Assembly (NCBI GenBank): GCA_000004695.1 | Contig: CM000151.3 | Span: 6,752,001-6,816,000, forward strand | Direction: 5' to 3' | DNA length: 64,000 nucleotides | From: Dictyostelium discoideum | Taxonomy: Eukaryota | Shown here: positions 1 through 35,558 of the stretch, in pieces | How the letters are laid out: each line of letters begins with the position of its first letter | How positions within the stretch are numbered: position 1 is the first letter of the stretch | Made by a program: the position numbers and the translations under genes | The notes under the pieces: model-generated | The model's database searches: none | Told to the model about the DNA's origin: nothing | Seen by the model: the letters and a program-made list of their open reading frames with translations, nothing else

Positions 1-7543
<7,543 letters not shown>

Positions 7544-14971: not shown

Positions 14972-15045
14972 GCCTTAGTAGCTCAGTTGGTACGAGCGTG
15001 AGACTGAAGATCTTAAGGTCGCTGGTTCGATCCCGGCCTGAGGCA
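14972..15045 (+). tRNA. tRNA-Phe (anticodon GAA)
   Basis: GCCTTAGTAGCTCAGTTGGTACGAGCGTGAGACTGAAGATCTTAAGGTCGCTGGTTCGATCCCGGCCTGAGGCA. 7-bp acceptor stem (GCCTTAG/CTGAGGC), anticodon loop CTGAAGA, T-arm GGTTCGATCC. Close to canonical eukaryotic tRNA-Phe. Confidence 0.92.
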
Positions 15046-15148: not shown

Positions 15149-16698
15149 CCGCACCGCGATCAAGAGGATACAAGATACACGTGAAAAGTAATTCATCCTT
15201 TTCTATCCTTAATCTCGGTCAATTTTAACCAATCTTTCAAAAAAAATCACCAATCCACCACGATCTACAGATCTAACTTACCAAATCGCCGATTCAAAGG
15301 AATCCCATCGAGATGAATTCCTACGCAGACGCGGCTAAAATGGCCAACCCCTCCACCCATATGGACGAGGCATCAGAGAACTTCATTAAGGAATTCTCCA
15401 CAAAAACAGCAGAGATAAAGGAGACCTACCCCAAATTATCAATAGGCCTCAAAGACATCTCCAAATACTGCGAGACCATATTGAACATGACTGCTCTCTC
15501 AACCTACGAGAAAAACAACGGATTCTACCCAATTACACTCGAATTCCCCAAAATGGATCTCATGGGGTTAGAAGAAATGAGAAAAACACTCTCAAACTAC
15601 GATATCCCAATCGACAAGATATACATAGGCAAAGGAACTAGAAAAACGATCCACCTGATGATTAAAAACGAACAATCTCTCCTAAATATCATTAGAGATA
15701 GAAGCAAATTGGGAACCTTCATCACCTCCAGTAGAGACTACCACGTCCTCACAGGAAGAGTAAGAATTCCAAGAGAAAAGGCAGGAATAGTGGACGCCCT
15801 CATCAAAACTGCCTTTGCAGAAGAAATACCCTATGCAATATACCATACTATATACTCCACCGACCACCTCCTAGTATTCGGTCTAATAGAATGCAAAATA
15901 GGCGATCAAATGAAATCTGGCCAACACAATACAGAAATCGCCAACTTTACCATCAGAACGGCCACCAAAACCTACTCCTCACAAAAGAAAAATAAGAAAG
16001 TAGAGTCAAACAACACGGAAGAACCATTAGAAGATGAGATGACAGATGATCCTCCCAACATCCAAAACAGGATAGCAATCAAATCCTCTCAACCAAAACC
16101 ACAACAACAAACATACAACCCAGCAAACAATAAGTCTGATAAACAATCAACCCAAGAGAAAAAAGCCCAATCAAAAAAGTCCTCTCAACCTCTTCCCCCC
16201 AAAAACCAAGCAGAATCTCAATCTGTCAAACCCACCACAACCACTACCACAACATCCAACGCCATCCAAAAAGACAATGCCAACAAAACGAGCACTAACA
16301 TCCATTCATCCTCGGAAAACAGAGAGAAGACACCAAACATCCCTCCATCACATAAACGCAAGAACGAGGAAATCCACTCAAACAACGAGGTCACCCAACT
16401 CTCACCAACAATAAACAGAAGCAACCCTTACATCCCATCCACCCCTAAGACACCTGTCAATAAAGAAAGGAAAGGAATCATTGAGAGCTTCATAGAGAGT
16501 ATCTACCCTTCACCATCCAAACCGCAGCTATACGACTCCCAAGAGGAGATCGATATCATCTCATAATGGTAGTAATCAAAATCAACCAATGGAATGTCAG
16601 AGGTTGGGGCACTGACACCTCCTTCAAAAACAAAACAGACTTTATCAAATCCCAATCCCCCCCAAACTCATTGGCAATAACCATAGTCAATGAACTCA
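15149..16698 (+). mobile_element. tRNA-gene-associated non-LTR retrotransposon (TRE-like), 5' part: 5' UTR, ORF1, and the first 44 codons of ORF2 (APE-type endonuclease) truncated by an assembly gap
   Basis: Starts about 100 bp downstream of tRNA-Phe, at CCGCACCGCGATCAAGAGG preceded by an A-run. ORF1 spans 15313..16566. ORF2 starts at 16566 by ATAATGG overlap (MVVIKINQWNVRGWGTDTSFKNKTDFIKSQSPP…), the characteristic start of an L1-type AP endonuclease. Insertion downstream of a tRNA suggests a TRE3-type element. The subfamily cannot be named from the sequence alone. Confidence 0.7.
15313..16566 (+). CDS. Retrotransposon ORF1 protein (417 aa)
   Basis: Intact ORF. It has normal (non-AT-rich) codon composition, unlike host genes. 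A diverged, frameshifted inverted copy lies at 17215..18224 (minus). Confidence 0.7.
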   Translation: MNSYADAAKMANPSTHMDEASENFIKEFSTKTAEIKETYPKLSIGLKDISKYCETILNMTALSTYEKNNGFYPITLEFPKMDLMGLEEMRKTLSNYDIPIDKIYIGKGTRKTIHLMIKNEQSLLNIIRDRSKLGTFITSSRDYHVLTGRVRIPREKAGIVDALIKTAFAEEIPYAIYHTIYSTDHLLVFGLIECKIGDQMKSGQHNTEIANFTIRTATKTYSSQKKNKKVESNNTEEPLEDEMTDDPPNIQNRIAIKSSQPKPQQQTYNPANNKSDKQSTQEKKAQSKKSSQPLPPKNQAESQSVKPTTTTTTTSNAIQKDNANKTSTNIHSSSENREKTPNIPPSHKRKNEEIHSNNEVTQLSPTINRSNPYIPSTPKTPVNKERKGIIESFIESIYPSPSKPQLYDSQEEIDIIS

Positions 16699-19542: not shown

Positions 19543-19613
19543 GGGGAGATCCGAGAATCGAACTCAGGACGCTACCACCCAAAGGTAGCATTATACCACT
19601 TAACTAATCTCCC
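19543..19613 (-). tRNA. tRNA-Pro (anticodon UGG)
   Basis: The minus-strand sequence is GGGAGATTAGTTAAGTGGTATAATGCTACCTTTGGGTGGTAGCGTCCTGAGTTCGATTCTCGGATCTCCCC. Perfect 7-bp acceptor stem. Anticodon stem CTACC/GGTAG with loop TTTGGGT (anticodon TGG, G37). T-arm GAGTTCGATTCTC. Confidence 0.9.
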
Positions 19614-19685: not shown

Positions 19686-19759
19686 TGCCTCAGGCCGGGA
19701 TCGAACCAGCGACCTTAAGATCTTCAGTCTCACGCTCGTACCAACTGAGCTACTAAGGC
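19686..19759 (-). tRNA. tRNA-Phe (anticodon GAA), identical to the copy at 14972..15045 but inverted
   Basis: It is the exact reverse complement of the 74-nt tRNA-Phe sequence. Confidence 0.92.
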
Positions 19760-20154: not shown

Positions 20155-25982
<5,828 letters not shown>

Positions 25983-26626: not shown

Positions 26627-28280
26627 ATGAATAAATTTCTACTGAAAAGAGAACTTGGTATATGTAATGAAAGAAGAGAAATAATTGATGAAATTAAAAG
26701 AAGTATAAGACATCTCGATTTATCAGTATATAAACAAATTATAAACTATAATAAAGGTCCTATCAATCATTTAGATATTGATGTTGCTGAAAATAGATAG
26801 TAATGTATAATAATATATTTAATATTAAAATTTTAAATTTATTTTAAAAATAAAATTTTTCTAACTATTTTCTTTTTTTTTTTTTTTTCTCTCTGTCATA
26901 TATATATATAGTTTATTATCTGTTAGTGGTGATGGAATAATACAAATTTATGATTTATTTGAAAATTTATTAAATAATAAAAAAAATAATGAAATTAAAA
27001 CAGAATTTCAACCAATATTAAAAATAAATAGAAAAAGTAATAATAATAATAATAATAATAATAGTAATAGTGAAGGTATTTTATTAAAAGGTATATCAAG
27101 TGTTCAATGGTACCCAATTGATACAGGAATATTTTTTATTGGTGGTGTTAATGGTAATGTTGAAGTATGGGATACTAATCTTGGACAAGTTTCACAAACA
27201 TTTTATCTTGAGAATTGTGTAAATTCAATATCCTACTCTCAAGTTAATTGTACCAATTTATTAATTGCCGCTGCAACAACTGATCCAAAAGTTAGACTAT
27301 GTGATATGCGTACAAACTCTTCCGTTCATTGTTTAACAGGTCATCGTGAAAGTGTACTCTCAATTAAGTGGTCACCTTTCTCTCCAAATTTAATTGCAAC
27401 CGCTTCAAAAGATAAAACAATTAGATTATGGGATATACGTAGAGGTGATACATTTCTATTTGCTTTAGATCAATATAATGGTAGTGGTATTGGTATTGGT
27501 GTTGGTGGTGGTAGTGGTGGTGAAAGTAATGATGATGTTGGTAATGATATTGGTGGTGGTAATAAGAATGATTTAAAGCAATCAAAAAGGTATAGACAAA
27601 AATTACATAAACCTAAATCACTTCAAACCAGTAGTAGTTCAATTATTGAGAAAAGAAATATTGGTGGTGGTGGTGGTGGTATTGGTGGATCAGCTAATTT
27701 AACATTGAAAAAAGAGGTACCAACTGCTCATAATGGTACAATCACATCAATTGCTTGGACACCCGATGGTAATTATTTAGTTAGTACAGGAGCTGATAGT
27801 AAAATTAGATTATGGGATATTCAAAAAGGTGGTGCAAATACAATGATCAATTATCCAAATGCTCACAATGTTCACAAAATACCAAATCAAATTTGTTTAT
27901 CTACCAATGGTCAATATCTATTTCATCCAAATGGTAGAGCGATTCATGTTTATGAAACTGCAACAGGTAATTTAGTACGTCAATTAAAAGGTCATTTTGA
28001 AAAAGTCAATTGTTGTGTTTTTAATCATTGTGATCAAGCTTTAATCTCTGGTTCAAATGATAGATTAACTTTGTATTGGGATAATTCAAATGATGATCAA
28101 ATTGATGATCAACAATTTTTAAATGAAGAAAAACAAAATAATCAAAATAATGATGATGATAATAATAATTTTCAAGTTACTACTAATACAACAACTAAAA
28201 CTTCAACAACAACAACAACATCAACAACAATATCTCCTCCGACAACTTTAGAAGATGTTGATAATTGGAGTGATGATTAG
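26627..28280 (+). CDS. ercc8: Cockayne-syndrome WD-repeat protein CSA / ERCC8 orthologue, 2 exons
   Basis: Exon 1 is 26627..26799 (MNKFLLKRELGICNERREIIDEIKRSIRHLDLSVYKQIINYNKGPINHLDIDVAENR-) with a GTAATG donor. The intron ends …CTCTCTGTCATATATATATATAG. Exon 2 is 26912..28280 and includes track ORF 27306..28280. The product is collinear with human ERCC8. GPINHLDIDVAENRYLLSVSGDGIIQIYDLFEN matches [61 protein letters not shown] matches [84 protein letters not shown] matches [55 protein letters not shown]. Confidence 0.8.
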
Positions 28281-28882: not shown

Positions 28883-28954
28883 ATGTCAAATAATAATTAT
28901 AATAAAATACAAAGCCAATCATCAGGCAAGCGGAGATTTTTACAAGAAATACGT

Positions 28955-29001
<47 letters not shown>

Positions 29002-32000
29002 AATTTTGGAATTTACTAATAGTCATAAATTTTAATTAATTTTTATTATTATTTATAGCCAAAGGTGAAGAAGATGAATTATATAGTGAGCATTTTATTG
29101 AGATAGATAAATTAATAAAACAAGAGCAAGAAAAAGAAGAAAATGGTGGATTTTCATTACCAAAATGGCCAGCTAGTAGTACTATAAACAACAATAGTAC
29201 TCAAAATTTATTTAGTAATTTTATGAGTGATAGTAGTAGTAGCATAAATAGTGATATTAATAGTAATTATACAAGAGATAATAATGGAATGTTTATAGTT
29301 AGAACAGATTTAAATACAGATATACCTTCATCACATAAATCAACCATCTATAGTAAACAACAACAATCACCAAGACATCAAGATATAAATAGTAATCATT
29401 ATTCAATGACTTATGATAGTAGTTTACTTAGTGTTAGTGGTAGTAATGCAAGTAGTAATTGTAATACATCAGCTTCATCATCAGTAAATAGTTGTAATAA
29501 TTCAATTGGTAATTTAAGTAAAGTTTTTAATTTAAATTCTTCAACAAAGAGTTTAAATAACAACAACAACAATAATAATAATAATAATAATAATATGGAG
29601 ACAATTTCAGGTTTTAATAATATAATGAAAATTGATAATCTTATAAATCATGATACAAATAATAATAATAATAATAATAATATGATAACATCACCATCAC
29701 TAACTACAAATACAACAACTACTACAACAATGACATCAAATAATAGTACACCAATTAGATCACCATCACCACCAAAAACTCCACAACATCAATCAGTATT
29801 AATATCACCAATGACACCATATGATGTTTATAATTCTTATAAATTTGATAAATTGAAAACAACGCCAACATCACCAACATCACCAACTAAATCAACAAGA
29901 TTTAAGGAACCTCTATTACCAAGATCAAATAATAATTTTAATAATAACAACAACAAGAATAGTACAATGAGTTTATCAGGAATGATGAGTGGAACATTCT
30001 CAACATCACATTTATCAAGTTGGGTTTGGGTTAAAAATAAACATAGTATTGTTATCATTGGTCCAACTGGTATTGGTAAATCATTTTTATTAAATACTTT
30101 ATTACATTCAACTTTTACACCTTCTTTAAATTCAATTAGACCAATATTAGGTAATCATAGATTATCTTTAAAACCACAACATGATACAACTTCAACTTCA
30201 ACAACTTCAACAACAAATACAATTTCAACCGATCATATTATGTCAAATAATGAATACTTTTTATTAGATAAATTAAAAACTAAATTAATGAATATAAGTA
30301 AGAGTCAAATTGATCAAAAGATGATATTGGATCAATCATTTTATCAATCAATAAATTGGGATAAAGAAAGGGATAATGAATTTGAACGTGTTTATACTAC
30401 CAGTCAATATTTAACTAAAAAGATACCTCAAGTTAATGATAGTCATGCTTTTATATTACCACAAGGTAGATTGGGTCCAAATCAACAATTTAAATTCACC
30501 TATGGTGCTATCTGTGAATTAAATGTTGAATTCCTACAAGAGAGTGAAGTTCGTGTCATACTTTGGGAATTACATCAATATTCAGAGGATAAAACCATAC
30601 CAATGAATCCAAATAGATTACAATCATTGCAATGGGTTTACTCATCGGTTGTTGATGGTGCAACTTTTGATTATTCAAATCAAAGTAGTTCAAGTAGTAC
30701 GAGTAGTATCAATAGTGGTACCAGTGGTAGCAATAGAATGGTTAGAGTGGTGGAAGATATTAACTCCTATTGGGATATACCCATTAAAGAGAAATTTAAA
30801 AAGTTATTTGGTAAAAGAATTCAATTTAAAGGCTTGGGTAAAGATCACAATATCGATAGAATTTATGTTCGTGAAAAGGTTAAAGAGGTTTTATCAGTTT
30901 ATGGTTGTATTTTAAATTTATTACATATCAAATTACCTTCAAGTGTCCTATTCAATAAACGTGAAATCACAATGATATCCGATGATTCTAAAAGAGGTAA
31001 CATTTCAAAGTTTACAATCACTCGTATTTTGGATGATGCTGATCAAATTTTATTATCAATTGATTATCGTGGTTTATCTGCTGATCTTGCTGATTTATTA
31101 TTAGCTTCAAAATTCACTCAAAAGTTTTCTGCTGATGATGGTTCTATTCAATTCCTTGAATTAGGTGAACATCGTCAATTTCAATTACAACAACAACTAC
31201 AACAAAAACTTCAACAACAACAAGTTTCATCACCACAACCACAACCACAACAACAACAACAACAGCAACAAGTTCAACAATGTCAAAGTCAACAATCACC
31301 ACAACAATGCCAAAGCCAACAATCACCACAACAATGCCAAAGTCAACAATCACCACAACAATGCCAAAGTCAGCAATCACCTCTACAACAACAACAACAA
31401 CAACAACAATCACCACAACAATTACAATCACCACAACAACTTCCAGATATTCATTCATTCGTTATTAATCAACTTAGAAAATTATTTAAAGATGCAAGAA
31501 ATATTTCAAATATTCATAGAATATTAGATTCTTTTAAAATTATTAAAATTAAAGTAAGTTAAAATATTTTTCAAAAAAATATATATGCATTATAAATTAA
31601 TATTAACTTAATTTTTTTATTATTATTATTATTTTATATAAAGCCTTTATTATTTTCATCAATTCATTTAAATAAATCAGTACCACCAGAGTATAAATTA
31701 AAAGGATATTCAAGTATTAGACAATTGAAAGAGATATCAAATGTACCAGTTTTAATAAGATTAATGCATGTTTCAAATAATTCAACATGGACAACTCAAC
31801 ATAATTTATTGGATAAATTTAAACAAGGTATTGCAAAGAAACCTTCAATTTTAAATCATTTAGTTGAACAACAACAACAACAATACCAACAACAAGATGC
31901 ATTAAATTCAACTGGATCAAAACCAATTCCAACTGATAAAGAATTAAATGATTTACAAGAACAATTAACAAATTCATTTAAAGATACTTTAAACGTTAAT

Positions 32001-32009
32001 AATAATCAA

Positions 32010-32099
<90 letters not shown>

Positions 32100-34529
32100 T
32101 ATAATAATAATAATTATAATAATAATAATTATAATAATTATAATTATAATAATAATAATGTTATTACTAAAAACAATAATAATGTTATTAATAATAATAA
32201 TAACTATAATAATAATATAAATAATAATAATTGGAGAAATAATTACAATCGTGGTGTTATTAATCCACCAAGTGGTATAGATAGAATAACGACATCATTT
32301 AGAACTAGATTTGCAGGATGGAAAAGAAAGTTGTTAGCCAATGTTAGTTCAGAGGCATCAGAATCACTTTTCCAAAATAAATCTAATGAATGTGAACAAA
32401 TGGCAAGAATGGAATGGATTAAATTTAAAATGGTATCACCTGATGCAGTGGTGAATATTAATGATTTTTGTAATCTTGTCTATAGTACATTTGGTGGTAC
32501 AAATGCAAAACCAGATACCCTAAGCAATGTCAATGGTAATAATCCAGTGATTCTATTATGTAAAACTTTATTACAATGGACACCAAACTTTTGGAGGGAA
32601 AATATAGTTGAAAGATTACCAACACTTCAAGAAGAGATCAGTAGCTTTTCAAAGACTTTACTCTTTGAAACCAATAAATTACTTTTAAACAGAATCACCC
32701 TACCAAATGATGAAAAGAATTATTTAATGAAAGTGTTGCATTATTGTCAAGCTGCCACCGATCGTAATATTAGTTCAAAGATTAGTGGTGTTCAAACTTT
32801 ATTCAATCAAAATATGAATTTAATCATTTATAATACTTGTTTGGATACTTTTTGTTCAGAGGTTACAAATATTAAATTTCAACAATCATCAGTAAACTAT
32901 CATCTCATAATGGAAAGCTGTTTCTCTATCATTCCATACGCTGTCTCTACTAAAATTCAACAAAAACTAATTGAAATTTTACGTCAAGGTTTATCTTATC
33001 TAGATTCAATTGAAAAACATATTGAATATACTATTCAGTATTTATTAAATTCACCTTTCCGTATAAAACGTCAACAACAATTAAAACCATCAATTGATGT
33101 TTCCGATTCAGTTATTGAAAATTATGTTAATTTAGTTAATCCAATAACAAAACAATCACCATTAAAATCTCAATCACAACAAACTACTACAACTACAACT
33201 ACTACAACAACTACTACAACTACTACTACAACTTCTTCACCATCTAATTCACCAAAATTGTCAACTGATGAAATGGATATTGAAACTCCAAATAAAAAAA
33301 TTAAATCTGATAACTCTGTAAATAATATTAATAATACAACCGAAACAACTCCAACTGAAACTTCTCCAAATAATAGTAGTAATGTAATACCAACTCCAAT
33401 GATTATTAATAATCAAACCACCACAACAACAACAACAACATCATCAACAATATCAAATAATAATAACACTAACAATAATAATAATAATAATAAACCAATG
33501 TTTGATAATGGATCATGTAATTATATACCAAAACAAATTTTACCACCACAAACTGCAGACTCATTAATTCAAATTTGTGTTGGTAAAATTGTACAAAACA
33601 TTCATTCTTTAACATCAGTAAAAGGTACAACAATACCAGAGGAAATCTTACAAAAGATTATTACATTATTAATTAGTCAAGATAAAATTAAGGGTGGTAG
33701 TAATGATCCAATAACCAATCAATTGGATGATAGTTTATTAGCAAGATTATTAAGTCCATTCATGCAATCATTAGATTTAGAGGGTGCAAAATTCTTATCG
33801 ACAATATCATTGAAAACCATTGGTTCAACTTGTTCACAATTAAAGAAACTTTCATTGGCAAATTGTATCAATATACCAAGTGATGCTTTAAATTCAATTA
33901 GTATGAGTTGTAAGAATTTAGAGGTTATCATTTTGAAAGGTTGTTATCAATTATCAAATCCTGGTATAGTTTCTTTGGCAAGAGGTTGTCCAAACCTTTA
34001 TGTTGTGGATCTTTCTGGTTGTATGAAAATCACTGATTTTGCAATTCATGAATTACTACAAAATTGTAAACAACTTCATACATTGGATTTAAGAAAATGT
34101 GTAAATCTAACTGATGGTGCCTTTCAATCATTTAATATCACAACATTGGCCAATATCGATTTATTAGAGTGTAACTATATATCCGATCAAACTATATTCA
34201 ATATTTGTTCAACTAGTCGTAATCTATTATCAATAAAACTCTCTGGAAAAGGTATTACCGATCAATCCTTAAAGAAAATCTCTGAAAATTGTCAATCACT
34301 TACAAATTTAGATTTAGTACTTTGTGAAAATATAACTGATCAAGGTGTTCAACTTTTAGGAAAAAATTGTTTAAAATTATCTTCAATCAATTTATTTTCT
34401 TCAAAAAATTTAACTTCTTCAGTATTTGATGAAACAATTAATAATAATAATAATAATAATAATAATGTAAATAATAATAATAATAATAACAATATTGTAA
34501 ATAATAATAATAATAATAATAATAATTTA

Positions 34530-34560
<31 letters not shown>

Positions 34561-35557
34561 TGATAATTAATATATTTAATCAACAAAGTTGGTCATCATT
34601 AACTTCATTAAATTTAAATCGTTGTATTACAATTAATGATACATCAATTCTTACAATTACAAATCAATCACCATTATTGGAAACACTTATTTTAGCAATG
34701 TGTACTGATATTTCCGATGAAAGTGTAATTACAATTGCTCAACGTTTAAAGAATTTAAAGAATATTGATTTAACAAAGTGTACTCAAATTAGTGATCGTG
34801 GTGTAATTGAAATTGCAAAACAATGTAAACAAAATTTAAATCGTTTAATTTTGGTTAGTTGTACTCAAGTAACTGATGCATCGATTATTGAGGTTGCAAA
34901 TCAATGTTCCTCATTGATTCATTTGGATTTATCTCAATGCGAAAAGATTACCGATCAATCTTTATTAAAAGTTTCACAAGGACTACGTCAACTTCGTATT
35001 CTTTGTATGGAAGAATGTATCATTACAGATGTTGGTGTCTCTTCTTTGGGTGAAATCTCTGAAGGTTATGGCTGTCAGTATTTAGAGGTCATCAAATTTG
35101 GTTATTGTCGTTTCATCTCTGATTCCTCATTGATCAAGTTGGCATTTGGTTGTCCATTCGTTTCAAATTTAGATTTATCTCAATGTAGTAATTTAATTAC
35201 ACCACGTGCCATTAGAAGTGCAATTAAAGCTTGGCCACGTCTTCACACTTTACGTTTACGTGGTTACCAAAGTTTAACCAATGAATCCATCGTTGAATCC
35301 ACCCCATTGAAATTGAAAACTGTAAATCTTAGTTGGTGTGCCAATATGGAAGATAGTGCTTTGATTGGTTTTCTCAAACAATGCACCGCTATTGAAACTT
35401 TAGATATCTCAAAATGTCCAAAAATTACCGATAATTCTTTGGAATCAATTTTAGATTCTTGTCCTTCAATACGTGTTATCAATGTTTATGGTTGTAAAGA
35501 AATTTCAAGTTTTACTGTTCAAAAATTATCTTCTTTAGGTAAAGCAATTTATAGATA

Positions 35558-35558
<1 letters not shown>
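28883..35558 (+). CDS. Large ~2150-aa protein: low-complexity N-terminus, Walker-A (P-loop) NTPase-like region, polyQ, F-box-like motif, ~700-aa cysteine-containing leucine-rich repeat (FBXL-type) domain. 3 exons, merging track ORFs 29223..31562 and 31725..35558
   Basis: Exon 1 is 28883..28952 (MSNNNYNKIQSQSSGKRRFLQEI-, donor GTAGGT). Exon 2 is 29061..31553, ending …FKIIKIK with a perfect GTAAGT donor. Intron 2 is 90 nt (GTAAGTTAAAAT…TTTTATATAAAG). Exon 3 is 31644..35558 in phase 0, reading PLLFSSIHLNKSVPPEYKLKGYSSIRQLKEISNVPV…. The 'M' of track ORF 31725 is a TTG inside this open frame. P-loop …KHSIVIIGPTGIGKSFLLNTLLHS. F-box-like TIPEEILQKIITLLISQDKI. More than 20 LRRs of the type L..LDLS.C..ITD..L…. 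Confidence 0.6.

Follow-up and report, generated by a model that had tools for sequence, protein, structure and literature searches.

The window analysed here is a stretch of 64,000 nucleotides (nt) from chromosome 2 of Dictyostelium discoideum AX4, and the element under study is a single protein-coding gene on its forward strand at positions 28883-35558 (all positions are those of the window). The window is placed there by ORFs (open reading frames) next to the gene that match EAL69263/XP_643201, DDB_G0276367 and DDB_G0276401 exactly. The coding sequence is composed of three exons (Table 1) and comprises 6,480 nt after splicing, with zero internal stops, giving a product of 2,159 amino acids (aa), in line with the ~2150 aa expected in a preliminary description of the locus. 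The protein is predicted to consist, in this order, of a disordered N-terminus, a nucleotide-binding G domain, a middle domain, a low-complexity linker, a short element resembling a VHL box and about 20 leucine-rich repeats (LRRs).

The preliminary description had joined two open reading frames (ORFs), 29223..31562 and 31725..35558, into one gene, and the same domain order was indeed found in single orthologue chains of 1,890-2,188 aa. As had been described, the first frame runs through KIIKIK directly into the donor GTAAGT, and the second is entered in phase 0 after an intron of 90 nt; an in-frame TAA lies 6 nt into this intron. Both features can be read in the sequence and agree with the orthologues, in which KIIKIK|PLLFSS is colinear with the family-wide motif KPLL(F/Y)SS. 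Since intron 2 lies inside the predicted G-domain fold and interrupts it, two separate genes are excluded. The TTG at 31725, reported as the 'M' of the second ORF, is an internal Leu codon of exon 3, as had been recognised. A small 5' exon with the donor GTAGGT had also been suggested; it starts with ATG and encodes most of the N-terminal motif SSGKRRFLQEI(P), which is conserved across the splice site (SSGKRRFLQEI|P is colinear with SSGKRKFLQDIP in Heterostelium and Acytostelium). Intron 1 splits codon 24 (C|CC = Pro24) in phase 1. Of the junctions given before, 28952/29061 and 31553/31644, only the start of exon 2 had to be corrected to 29059, position 29061 being the first full codon. Colinear orthologues, among them transcript-derived ones, span both junctions, and Trinity transcripts are also found among the single chains that hold all three conserved regions. 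The predicted three-exon single-gene model is thus almost certainly correct; such a model may already stand in dictyBase, and this part of the finding is ordinary.

Table 1 Predicted exons, introns, domains and motifs of the gene (window positions)
Feature	Position	Strand	Residues and remarks
Exon 1	28883..28952	+	starts with ATG; aa 1-23 and first base of codon 24; donor GTAGGT
Intron 1	28953..29058	+	106 nt, GT..AG, phase 1, 8% GC, T40 run; each of the three frames has stops
Exon 2	29059..31553	+	aa 24-855; in-phase open frame; N/S/T-rich disordered stretch, the greater part of the G domain, polyQ tract
G domain, first part	30021..31169	+	aa 345-727; large insert between alpha-1 and beta-2
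G1/Walker A GPTGIGKS	30060..30083	+	aa 358-365; read directly
G3 position MISD	30972..30983	+	aa 662-665, end of beta-3; from alignment and model
G4 position ELGE	31158..31169	+	aa 724-727, replaces (N/T)KxD
PolyQ / QQCQSQQSP insert	31170..31454	+	aa 728-822, within the G domain; tandem repeats
G domain, continued	31455..31553	+	aa 823-855; helix to the end of exon 2; alignment places it on helix 376-394 of the model and the stretch that follows
Intron 2	31554..31643	+	90 nt, phase 0, GTAAGT...TATAAAG, 8% GC, stops in all frames
Exon 3	31644..35558	+	aa 856-2159 and TAA stop; A-rich tract after it
G domain, last part	31644..31793	+	aa 856-905; strand PLLFSS at G5, then helices (SNVPVLIRL)
Middle domain	32253..33080	+	aa 1059-1334; conserved across the family
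T/N/S-rich low-complexity linker	33081..33560	+	aa 1335-1494; site of the OTU domain in non-dictyostelid relatives
BC-box-like SLIQICVGKI	33561..33590	+	aa 1495-1504; fits [STP]Lxxx[CSA]xxxPhi
Cul2-box-like IPEEILQKI	33633..33659	+	aa 1519-1527; fits PhiPxxPhixxxPhi
LRR array	33762..35555	+	aa 1562-2159; about 20 Cys-containing FBXL-type repeats

With aa 320-727 of the D. discoideum protein as query, an exhaustive HMMER search of cluster representatives matched 52 relatives (best E = 7.8e-116), Logan and JGI sequences among them. The named members are all Amoebozoa and include Heterostelium album D3BDF6 (XP_020432720; 2,188 aa, 55% identity), the Acytostelium subglobosum orthologue (1,953 aa), a transcript of Clastostelium recurvatum (1,890 aa) and further transcripts from Cavostelium and Protostelium. 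In these relatives the domain of exon 2 and the middle domain and LRR region of exon 3 are all located on one chain. The Heterostelium orthologue carries the public name 'Non-receptor tyrosine kinase spore lysis A'; in D3BDF6 the Pfam matches are confined to the LRRs and the P-loop, with none to a kinase domain, and the name is probably a transfer error.

The putative nucleotide-binding half

A Walker A motif of the GxxGxGKS type had been pointed out in the preliminary description, and GPTGIGKS is read at the G1 position. Together with strand beta-1 it forms HSIVIIGPTGIGKS (aa 352-365, from the model described below mapped onto the D. discoideum protein). In the Pfam check suggested at that time the P-loop was matched by AAA_22, IstB, RsgA, nSTAND3, Roc and NACHT, each over 22-35 residues (just 22-29 residues at Walker A for NACHT, nSTAND3 and Roc), and no family rose above its cut-off. 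The Pfam dynamin and mitofusin models had no match in the D. discoideum protein. Searched with phmmer against the PDB, the nucleoside triphosphatase (NTPase) region returned Walker A matches alone, to the GTPase EngC and to septin-8, and the family profile gave a weak match to EngA/Der ('anllivavDs.rGls...lL', E 0.012), which corresponds to the beta4-alpha3 region of TRAFAC GTPases.

The fold of this region was modelled with AlphaFold2 (AF2), using aa 325-800 of the Acytostelium orthologue as query and a family alignment of 49 rows that included both D. discoideum exon pieces. The model reached a mean predicted local distance difference test (pLDDT) value of 84.5 and a predicted template modelling (pTM) score of 0.85, and by it the P-loop NTPase-like region described before is a genuine NTPase fold within the N-terminal half. 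In a structural comparison the highest score, 20.5, was obtained with a Campylobacter jejuni dynamin-like protein (DLP; 5owv_A), followed by SynDLP (19.7 and 17.6), Mitofusin-2 and Fzo1 (15.7 each), IniA (15.6) and EHD4 (14.6), then by OPA1, Mgm1, MxB and dynamin (10-11.7), while generic G domains (IF2, EngB, Ras, LRRK1 Roc) scored about 9-10 with far fewer residues aligned. Foldseek independently ranked the same families (E 2e-7 to 1e-3). STAND and AAA+ proteins were absent from the structural matches to the model, which shows the large G-domain fold with the dynamin-specific additions to the Ras-like core. Because the structural ranking and Foldseek agree and neither STAND nor AAA+ matches appear, the NTPase is assigned, with high confidence, to the dynamin superfamily as a divergent G domain of the bacterial DLP (BDLP)/mitofusin/EHD group. 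Its dynamin-like identity is detectable through structure only.

The predicted domain contains a large insert between alpha-1 and beta-2, which has roughly 270 residues (about 240 in the Acytostelium model) and carries the conserved motifs W..E, DDxxxFLLPQG, YGxIPELxVxF..E.ELR..LWELH and LLGK..xFxGxG....DRIYIREK. Four relatives (P0030, P0035, P0039 and P0046) contain several scattered copies of the short motif 'T-x-Y-x-F' (for example TSYAF, TTYGF, ATVYLW) in the variable insert from Walker A to W..E. The G2 switch-I zone after alpha-1 is modelled with a pLDDT <60 (model residues 50-95) and aligns poorly in the family. The beta2-beta3 hairpin, LLHIKLPSSVLFNKREITMIS, resembles the dynamin/mitofusin pattern 'P..LL..hhhhDxPG'; at the G3 position, (D/E)xxG is kept in seven relatives and DxxG is missing from the dictyostelids. 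At G4 (E/D)L(S/G/T)E predominates. The polyQ insert is specific for D. discoideum and missing in the orthologues; the DNA at 31275-31422, which is tandemly repeated with units of 27 and 54 nt, encodes about five copies of QQCQSQQSP. The G5 part is marked by the family motifs KPLL(F/Y)SS and TNIPxLL and corresponds to model strand 411-413 and the helices after it; helices following the G domain occupy model residues 376-475. The P-loop GxxxxGK[ST] is intact in 15 of the 20 family members that cover the site, and the intact P-loop of the D. discoideum protein argues for retained nucleotide binding.

Middle domain, pre-LRR box and LRR arm

The middle domain is recognisable by phmmer in Heterostelium (1.4e-100), Clastostelium (7.6e-30) and Cavostelium (5.2e-19), and by analogy with DLPs it may supply the dynamin-like module with its helical stalk or bundle. 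Transmembrane-like segments are absent from the D. discoideum protein (the top Kyte-Doolittle window of 19 residues reaches 1.46) and no membrane-binding or paddle segment was detected in it, so that it is predicted to be soluble.

Many non-dictyostelid relatives have, after the middle domain and ahead of the VHL-box-like element, an OTU domain similar to that of OTUD5 (profile versus OTUD5, E 3.6e-17), among them P0035 (aa 1071-1215), P0040, P0068, P0032 and others. In nine of eleven of these domains Ser, Ala or some other residue stands in place of the catalytic Cys, the His is mostly gone, and the relatives' OTU is likely a pseudo-deubiquitinase that is mostly catalytically dead. The domain is missing from the Heterostelium, Acytostelium and Clastostelium proteins as well as from that of D. 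discoideum, where no OTU similarity was found; dictyostelids and Clastostelium have lost it. Its presence in the other relatives points to a link of the family with the ubiquitin system.

The LRR array was correctly described before as FBXL-type and cysteine-containing. Its best matches in the PDB (phmmer) are FBXL2 (1.6e-40), FBXL17 (7.2e-28) and Rad7 (3.8e-12), and Pfam LRR_6 matches with 3.5e-17. By pattern 17 regular repeats are counted, and a polyN loop is located at 34437-34562.

Just before the repeats lies the segment TIPEEILQKIITLL (aa 1518-1531, 33630-33671), which had been called F-box-like. It contains a match to the Cul2 box, for which the consensus PhiPxxPhixxxPhi at a distance of 8-23 residues C-terminal to a BC box is described (PMC3355856), and a BC-box-like motif precedes it by 14 aa. 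The BC-box motif is present in 13 of 14 relatives and the full VHL-box pattern (BC box plus Cul2 box) in 10 of 14, with a spacing of 11-16 residues in the family; the BC-box Cys and the Cul2-box Pro are conserved. In the 2,159-aa protein this is the sole match to the pattern; 45 of 2,000 shuffled sequences (2.25%) hold any such match. The profile of the pre-LRR segment has the consensus SLxDLCxxxIxxxIxxLPxLxGxLPEELxQxIIxxLIxxxKLDDxxLxRLL. In the PDB only Rad7 (5zb2_A residues 3-117) aligns with this profile over its full length (full-sequence E 6e-12, domain E 2.9e-7), Rad7 SLQSLCITKI being placed on SLxDLCxxxI. In Rad7 the SOCS box was inactivated by mutating L168 and C172, and the protein acts together with Elongin C and Cul3 (PMC4551923). 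CroV588 of the giant virus Cafeteria roenbergensis virus (PDB 6nyr_A) matches the BC-box/cap part of the profile with E 4e-8.

The call of an F-box was not upheld: Pfam F-box and F-box-like models gave no match in the D. discoideum protein at E<=10 and none at E<=0.01 in five full-length relatives, whereas the Cul2-box consensus fits. On sequence grounds, the pre-LRR element is best described as VHL-box-like and homologous to the SOCS-box region of Rad7. The general idea behind the earlier call, a putative adaptor-binding box ahead of substrate-binding LRRs, survives.

Proposed function, alternatives and known systems

We propose that the gene encodes one soluble protein in which a divergent dynamin-type G domain is combined with a ubiquitin-ligase-like VHL-box/LRR arm, and that this protein is a nucleotide-controlled, self-associating receptor; this reading as a whole is considered reasonably probable. 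The LRR arm would bind a protein substrate, and the BC/Cul2 box would be the docking site for an adaptor of the Elongin-C type and for a cullin-RING core, as in Rad7, LRR-1 and ZYG11. The dynamin-like module may bind nucleotide and then dimerise or assemble, and the nucleotide-driven assembly could set where or when the receptor is active. For the narrower claim that the D. discoideum protein acts as a receptor of a cullin-RING ligase (CRL), the chances are put at about even.

Several observations weigh against this proposal. The P-loop is degenerate in five of the 20 family members covering the site, DxxG is lacking at G3 in D. discoideum, where D665 and D666 come after the strand, and NKxD is found at G4 in no family member; with neither G3 nor G4 canonical, both the specificity for GTP and its hydrolysis are doubtful. 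The modelled chain is the Acytostelium orthologue, which is 46% (alignment) or 49% (phmmer) identical to the D. discoideum protein, and when aa 320-727 of the D. discoideum protein were modelled with AF2 from the single sequence, the pLDDT was only 33. The middle-domain profile gave no credible match in Pfam or the PDB. The BC box and the Cul2 box are both degenerate motifs of short length, the Cul2 box resembles helix 1 of an F-box (the Skp2 alignment gives 11 bits), and the pre-LRR cap also weakly matches DRC5/TCTE1, a non-ligase LRR protein, with E 0.04.

The degeneracy of the box motifs and the match to DRC5/TCTE1 speak for an explanation in which no link to a ligase exists: the pre-LRR segment would merely cap the LRR solenoid at its N-terminus, and a dynamin-like scaffold would bind a partner or cargo through its LRRs, for example at membranes or the cytoskeleton. 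The match of the cap profile to CroV588, likewise counted as a non-ligase LRR protein, the frequency of chance matches among the shuffled sequences and the fact that the top structural relatives are membrane-remodelling DLPs can be cited for it. However, over its full length the cap is matched best by Rad7, in which the equivalent L168 and C172 belong to a functional Elongin C-Cul3 SOCS box, the Cys and Pro are conserved family-wide, the OTU domain of the relatives lies immediately upstream of the box, and no membrane-binding or transmembrane segment was detected; we regard this explanation as rather unlikely. A true F-box protein, a reading that takes the LPEEL segment for helix 1 of a divergent Skp1-binding F-box in a Skp1-cullin-F-box (SCF; Cul1-type) receptor of the FBXL class, agrees with the LRRs being nearest to FBXL2 and FBXL17. 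Furthermore, 'tLPEElvqkiltll' aligns with helix 1 of the Skp2 F-box ('SLPDELLLGIFSCL', i-E 4.5), and Pfam F-box-like is touched in one of 14 pre-LRR segments (E 0.18). Apart from the missing Pfam matches, however, the family profile gives no alignment at all to the F-box regions of FBXL2, FBXL17, FBXL5 and FBXL3, the (V)CKRW stretch conserved in F-boxes is missing, and the conserved BC box upstream is not needed by F-box proteins. On the profile evidence, in which only Skp2 helix 1 aligns and this weakly, a canonical F-box was rejected, and a divergent one seems quite improbable.

The preliminary description had likened the order of domains to that of NLR/STAND and Roco proteins, that is, to a sensor in which a STAND (NACHT/NB-ARC) or Roc-COR NTPase oligomerises upon ligand binding by the LRRs. 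An NTPase followed by LRRs, the GxxGxGKS Walker A and the weak P-loop matches in Pfam (nSTAND3 16.0 bits, NACHT 12.1, Roc 14.7) are consistent with it, but these matches are below the cut-offs and the fold search, which ranks DLPs and contains no STAND or AAA+ protein, largely refutes it. The marks of a STAND core, namely a Walker B of the form hhhhD[DE], the Arg of sensor-1 and helical plus winged-helix domains, were not found in the protein, nor was a Roc domain directly before COR, and signatures of NACHT, NB-ARC or COR are absent from it. In Roco proteins the LRRs stand before Roc, and the comparison of domain order is therefore inapplicable to them. STAND/NACHT and Roco identities were rejected, and a sensor of either kind is extremely unlikely. 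A more far-reaching version of the proposed receptor may be sketched, in which the family is an amoebozoan machine of cell-autonomous defence or quality control, comparable to GBP/IRG or NLR proteins and built from other parts: the LRRs would see a target that is foreign or damaged, the dynamin-like module would assemble there in dependence on nucleotide, the VHL-box would recruit a cullin-RING core, the ancestral pseudo-OTU would read ubiquitin and the target would become coated with ubiquitin. This is speculative and very improbable at present.

Among known systems, the nearest to the N-terminal half are bacterial DLPs, mitofusins and EHD ATPases (C. jejuni DLP1/2, SynDLP, BDLP, IniA, MFN1/2, Fzo1). 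Unlike these, the family described here lacks (N/T)KxD and its dictyostelid members lack DxxG; the alpha-1/beta-2 insert is an addition, and where the known proteins have a membrane-binding trunk the C-terminus here consists of OTU, VHL-box and LRR parts. The C-terminal half shares the BC box, the spacing of 11-16 residues to PhiPxxPhixxxPhi, the helical cap and LRRs with Rad7, the E3 for global-genome nucleotide excision repair in yeast, and with the VHL-box receptors LRR-1, ZYG11/ZER1 and PRAME. The likeness to Rad7 extends across the whole pre-LRR segment, the Leu and Cys of the SOCS box included, whereas the LRRs are nearer to FBXL2 and FBXL17 and the box lies about 1,500 residues into the chain after a dynamin-like half; binding of adaptor and cullin is a prediction here. 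FBXL2 and FBXL17 have the same Cys-containing LRR type over many repeats but possess their own F-box, which is not detectable in this family. NLR/STAND and Roco (LRRK) proteins are similar in being large multidomain proteins with a P-loop NTPase and LRRs, but both the class of the NTPase (TRAFAC dynamin-like here, STAND or Roc-COR there) and the type of LRR differ. The closest precedent in concept, a GTPase domain and a BC box on one chain, is Rab40, a Rab GTPase with a C-terminal SOCS box that serves as a CRL5 receptor. Rab40 has no LRRs and its GTPase is of the small, Ras-like kind, whereas a dynamin-like GTPase and a long LRR solenoid are predicted here. Rab-40C is counted among the SOCS-box proteins with a GTPase domain (PMC3355856).

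A review from 2021 lists eight D. discoideum proteins of the dynamin superfamily (PMC8565484), none of which maps to this locus, and a 2023 survey of new dynamin-related proteins left out the BDLP/mitofusin branch (PMC10280142). A literature search found no account of this gene or of an architecture combining dynamin-like and LRR parts. If the assignment holds, the protein would be a ninth, very divergent member of the superfamily in D. discoideum and, to our knowledge, the first known case in which the arm that serves a CRL as substrate receptor is fused to a G domain of the dynamin-like type. Nucleotide-driven self-assembly would then be tied directly to ubiquitylation, and because D. discoideum is a tractable genetic model the proposal is directly testable. 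Two tempting mis-annotations, 'NLR-like' and 'F-box protein', are corrected by the analysis.

Elsewhere in the window

The upstream neighbour of the gene, ORF 27306-28280 (324 aa), has the look of a WD40-repeat portion belonging to a gene with several exons and Gly-rich inserts. Further upstream, genes for tRNA-Phe (14972-15045, + strand), tRNA-Pro (19543-19613, - strand) and tRNA-Phe (19686-19759, - strand) flank a block richer in guanine and cytosine (GC 0.32-0.40). The product of ORF 15313-16566 in this block falls into a multi-copy cluster of Dictyostelium genomes with 37 members (DDB_G0276397-like), and this is probably a tRNA-gene-targeted retroelement. Two very long ORFs are also present in the window, one at 65-7543 (2,492 aa) and one on the - strand at 20155-25353 (1,732 aa).

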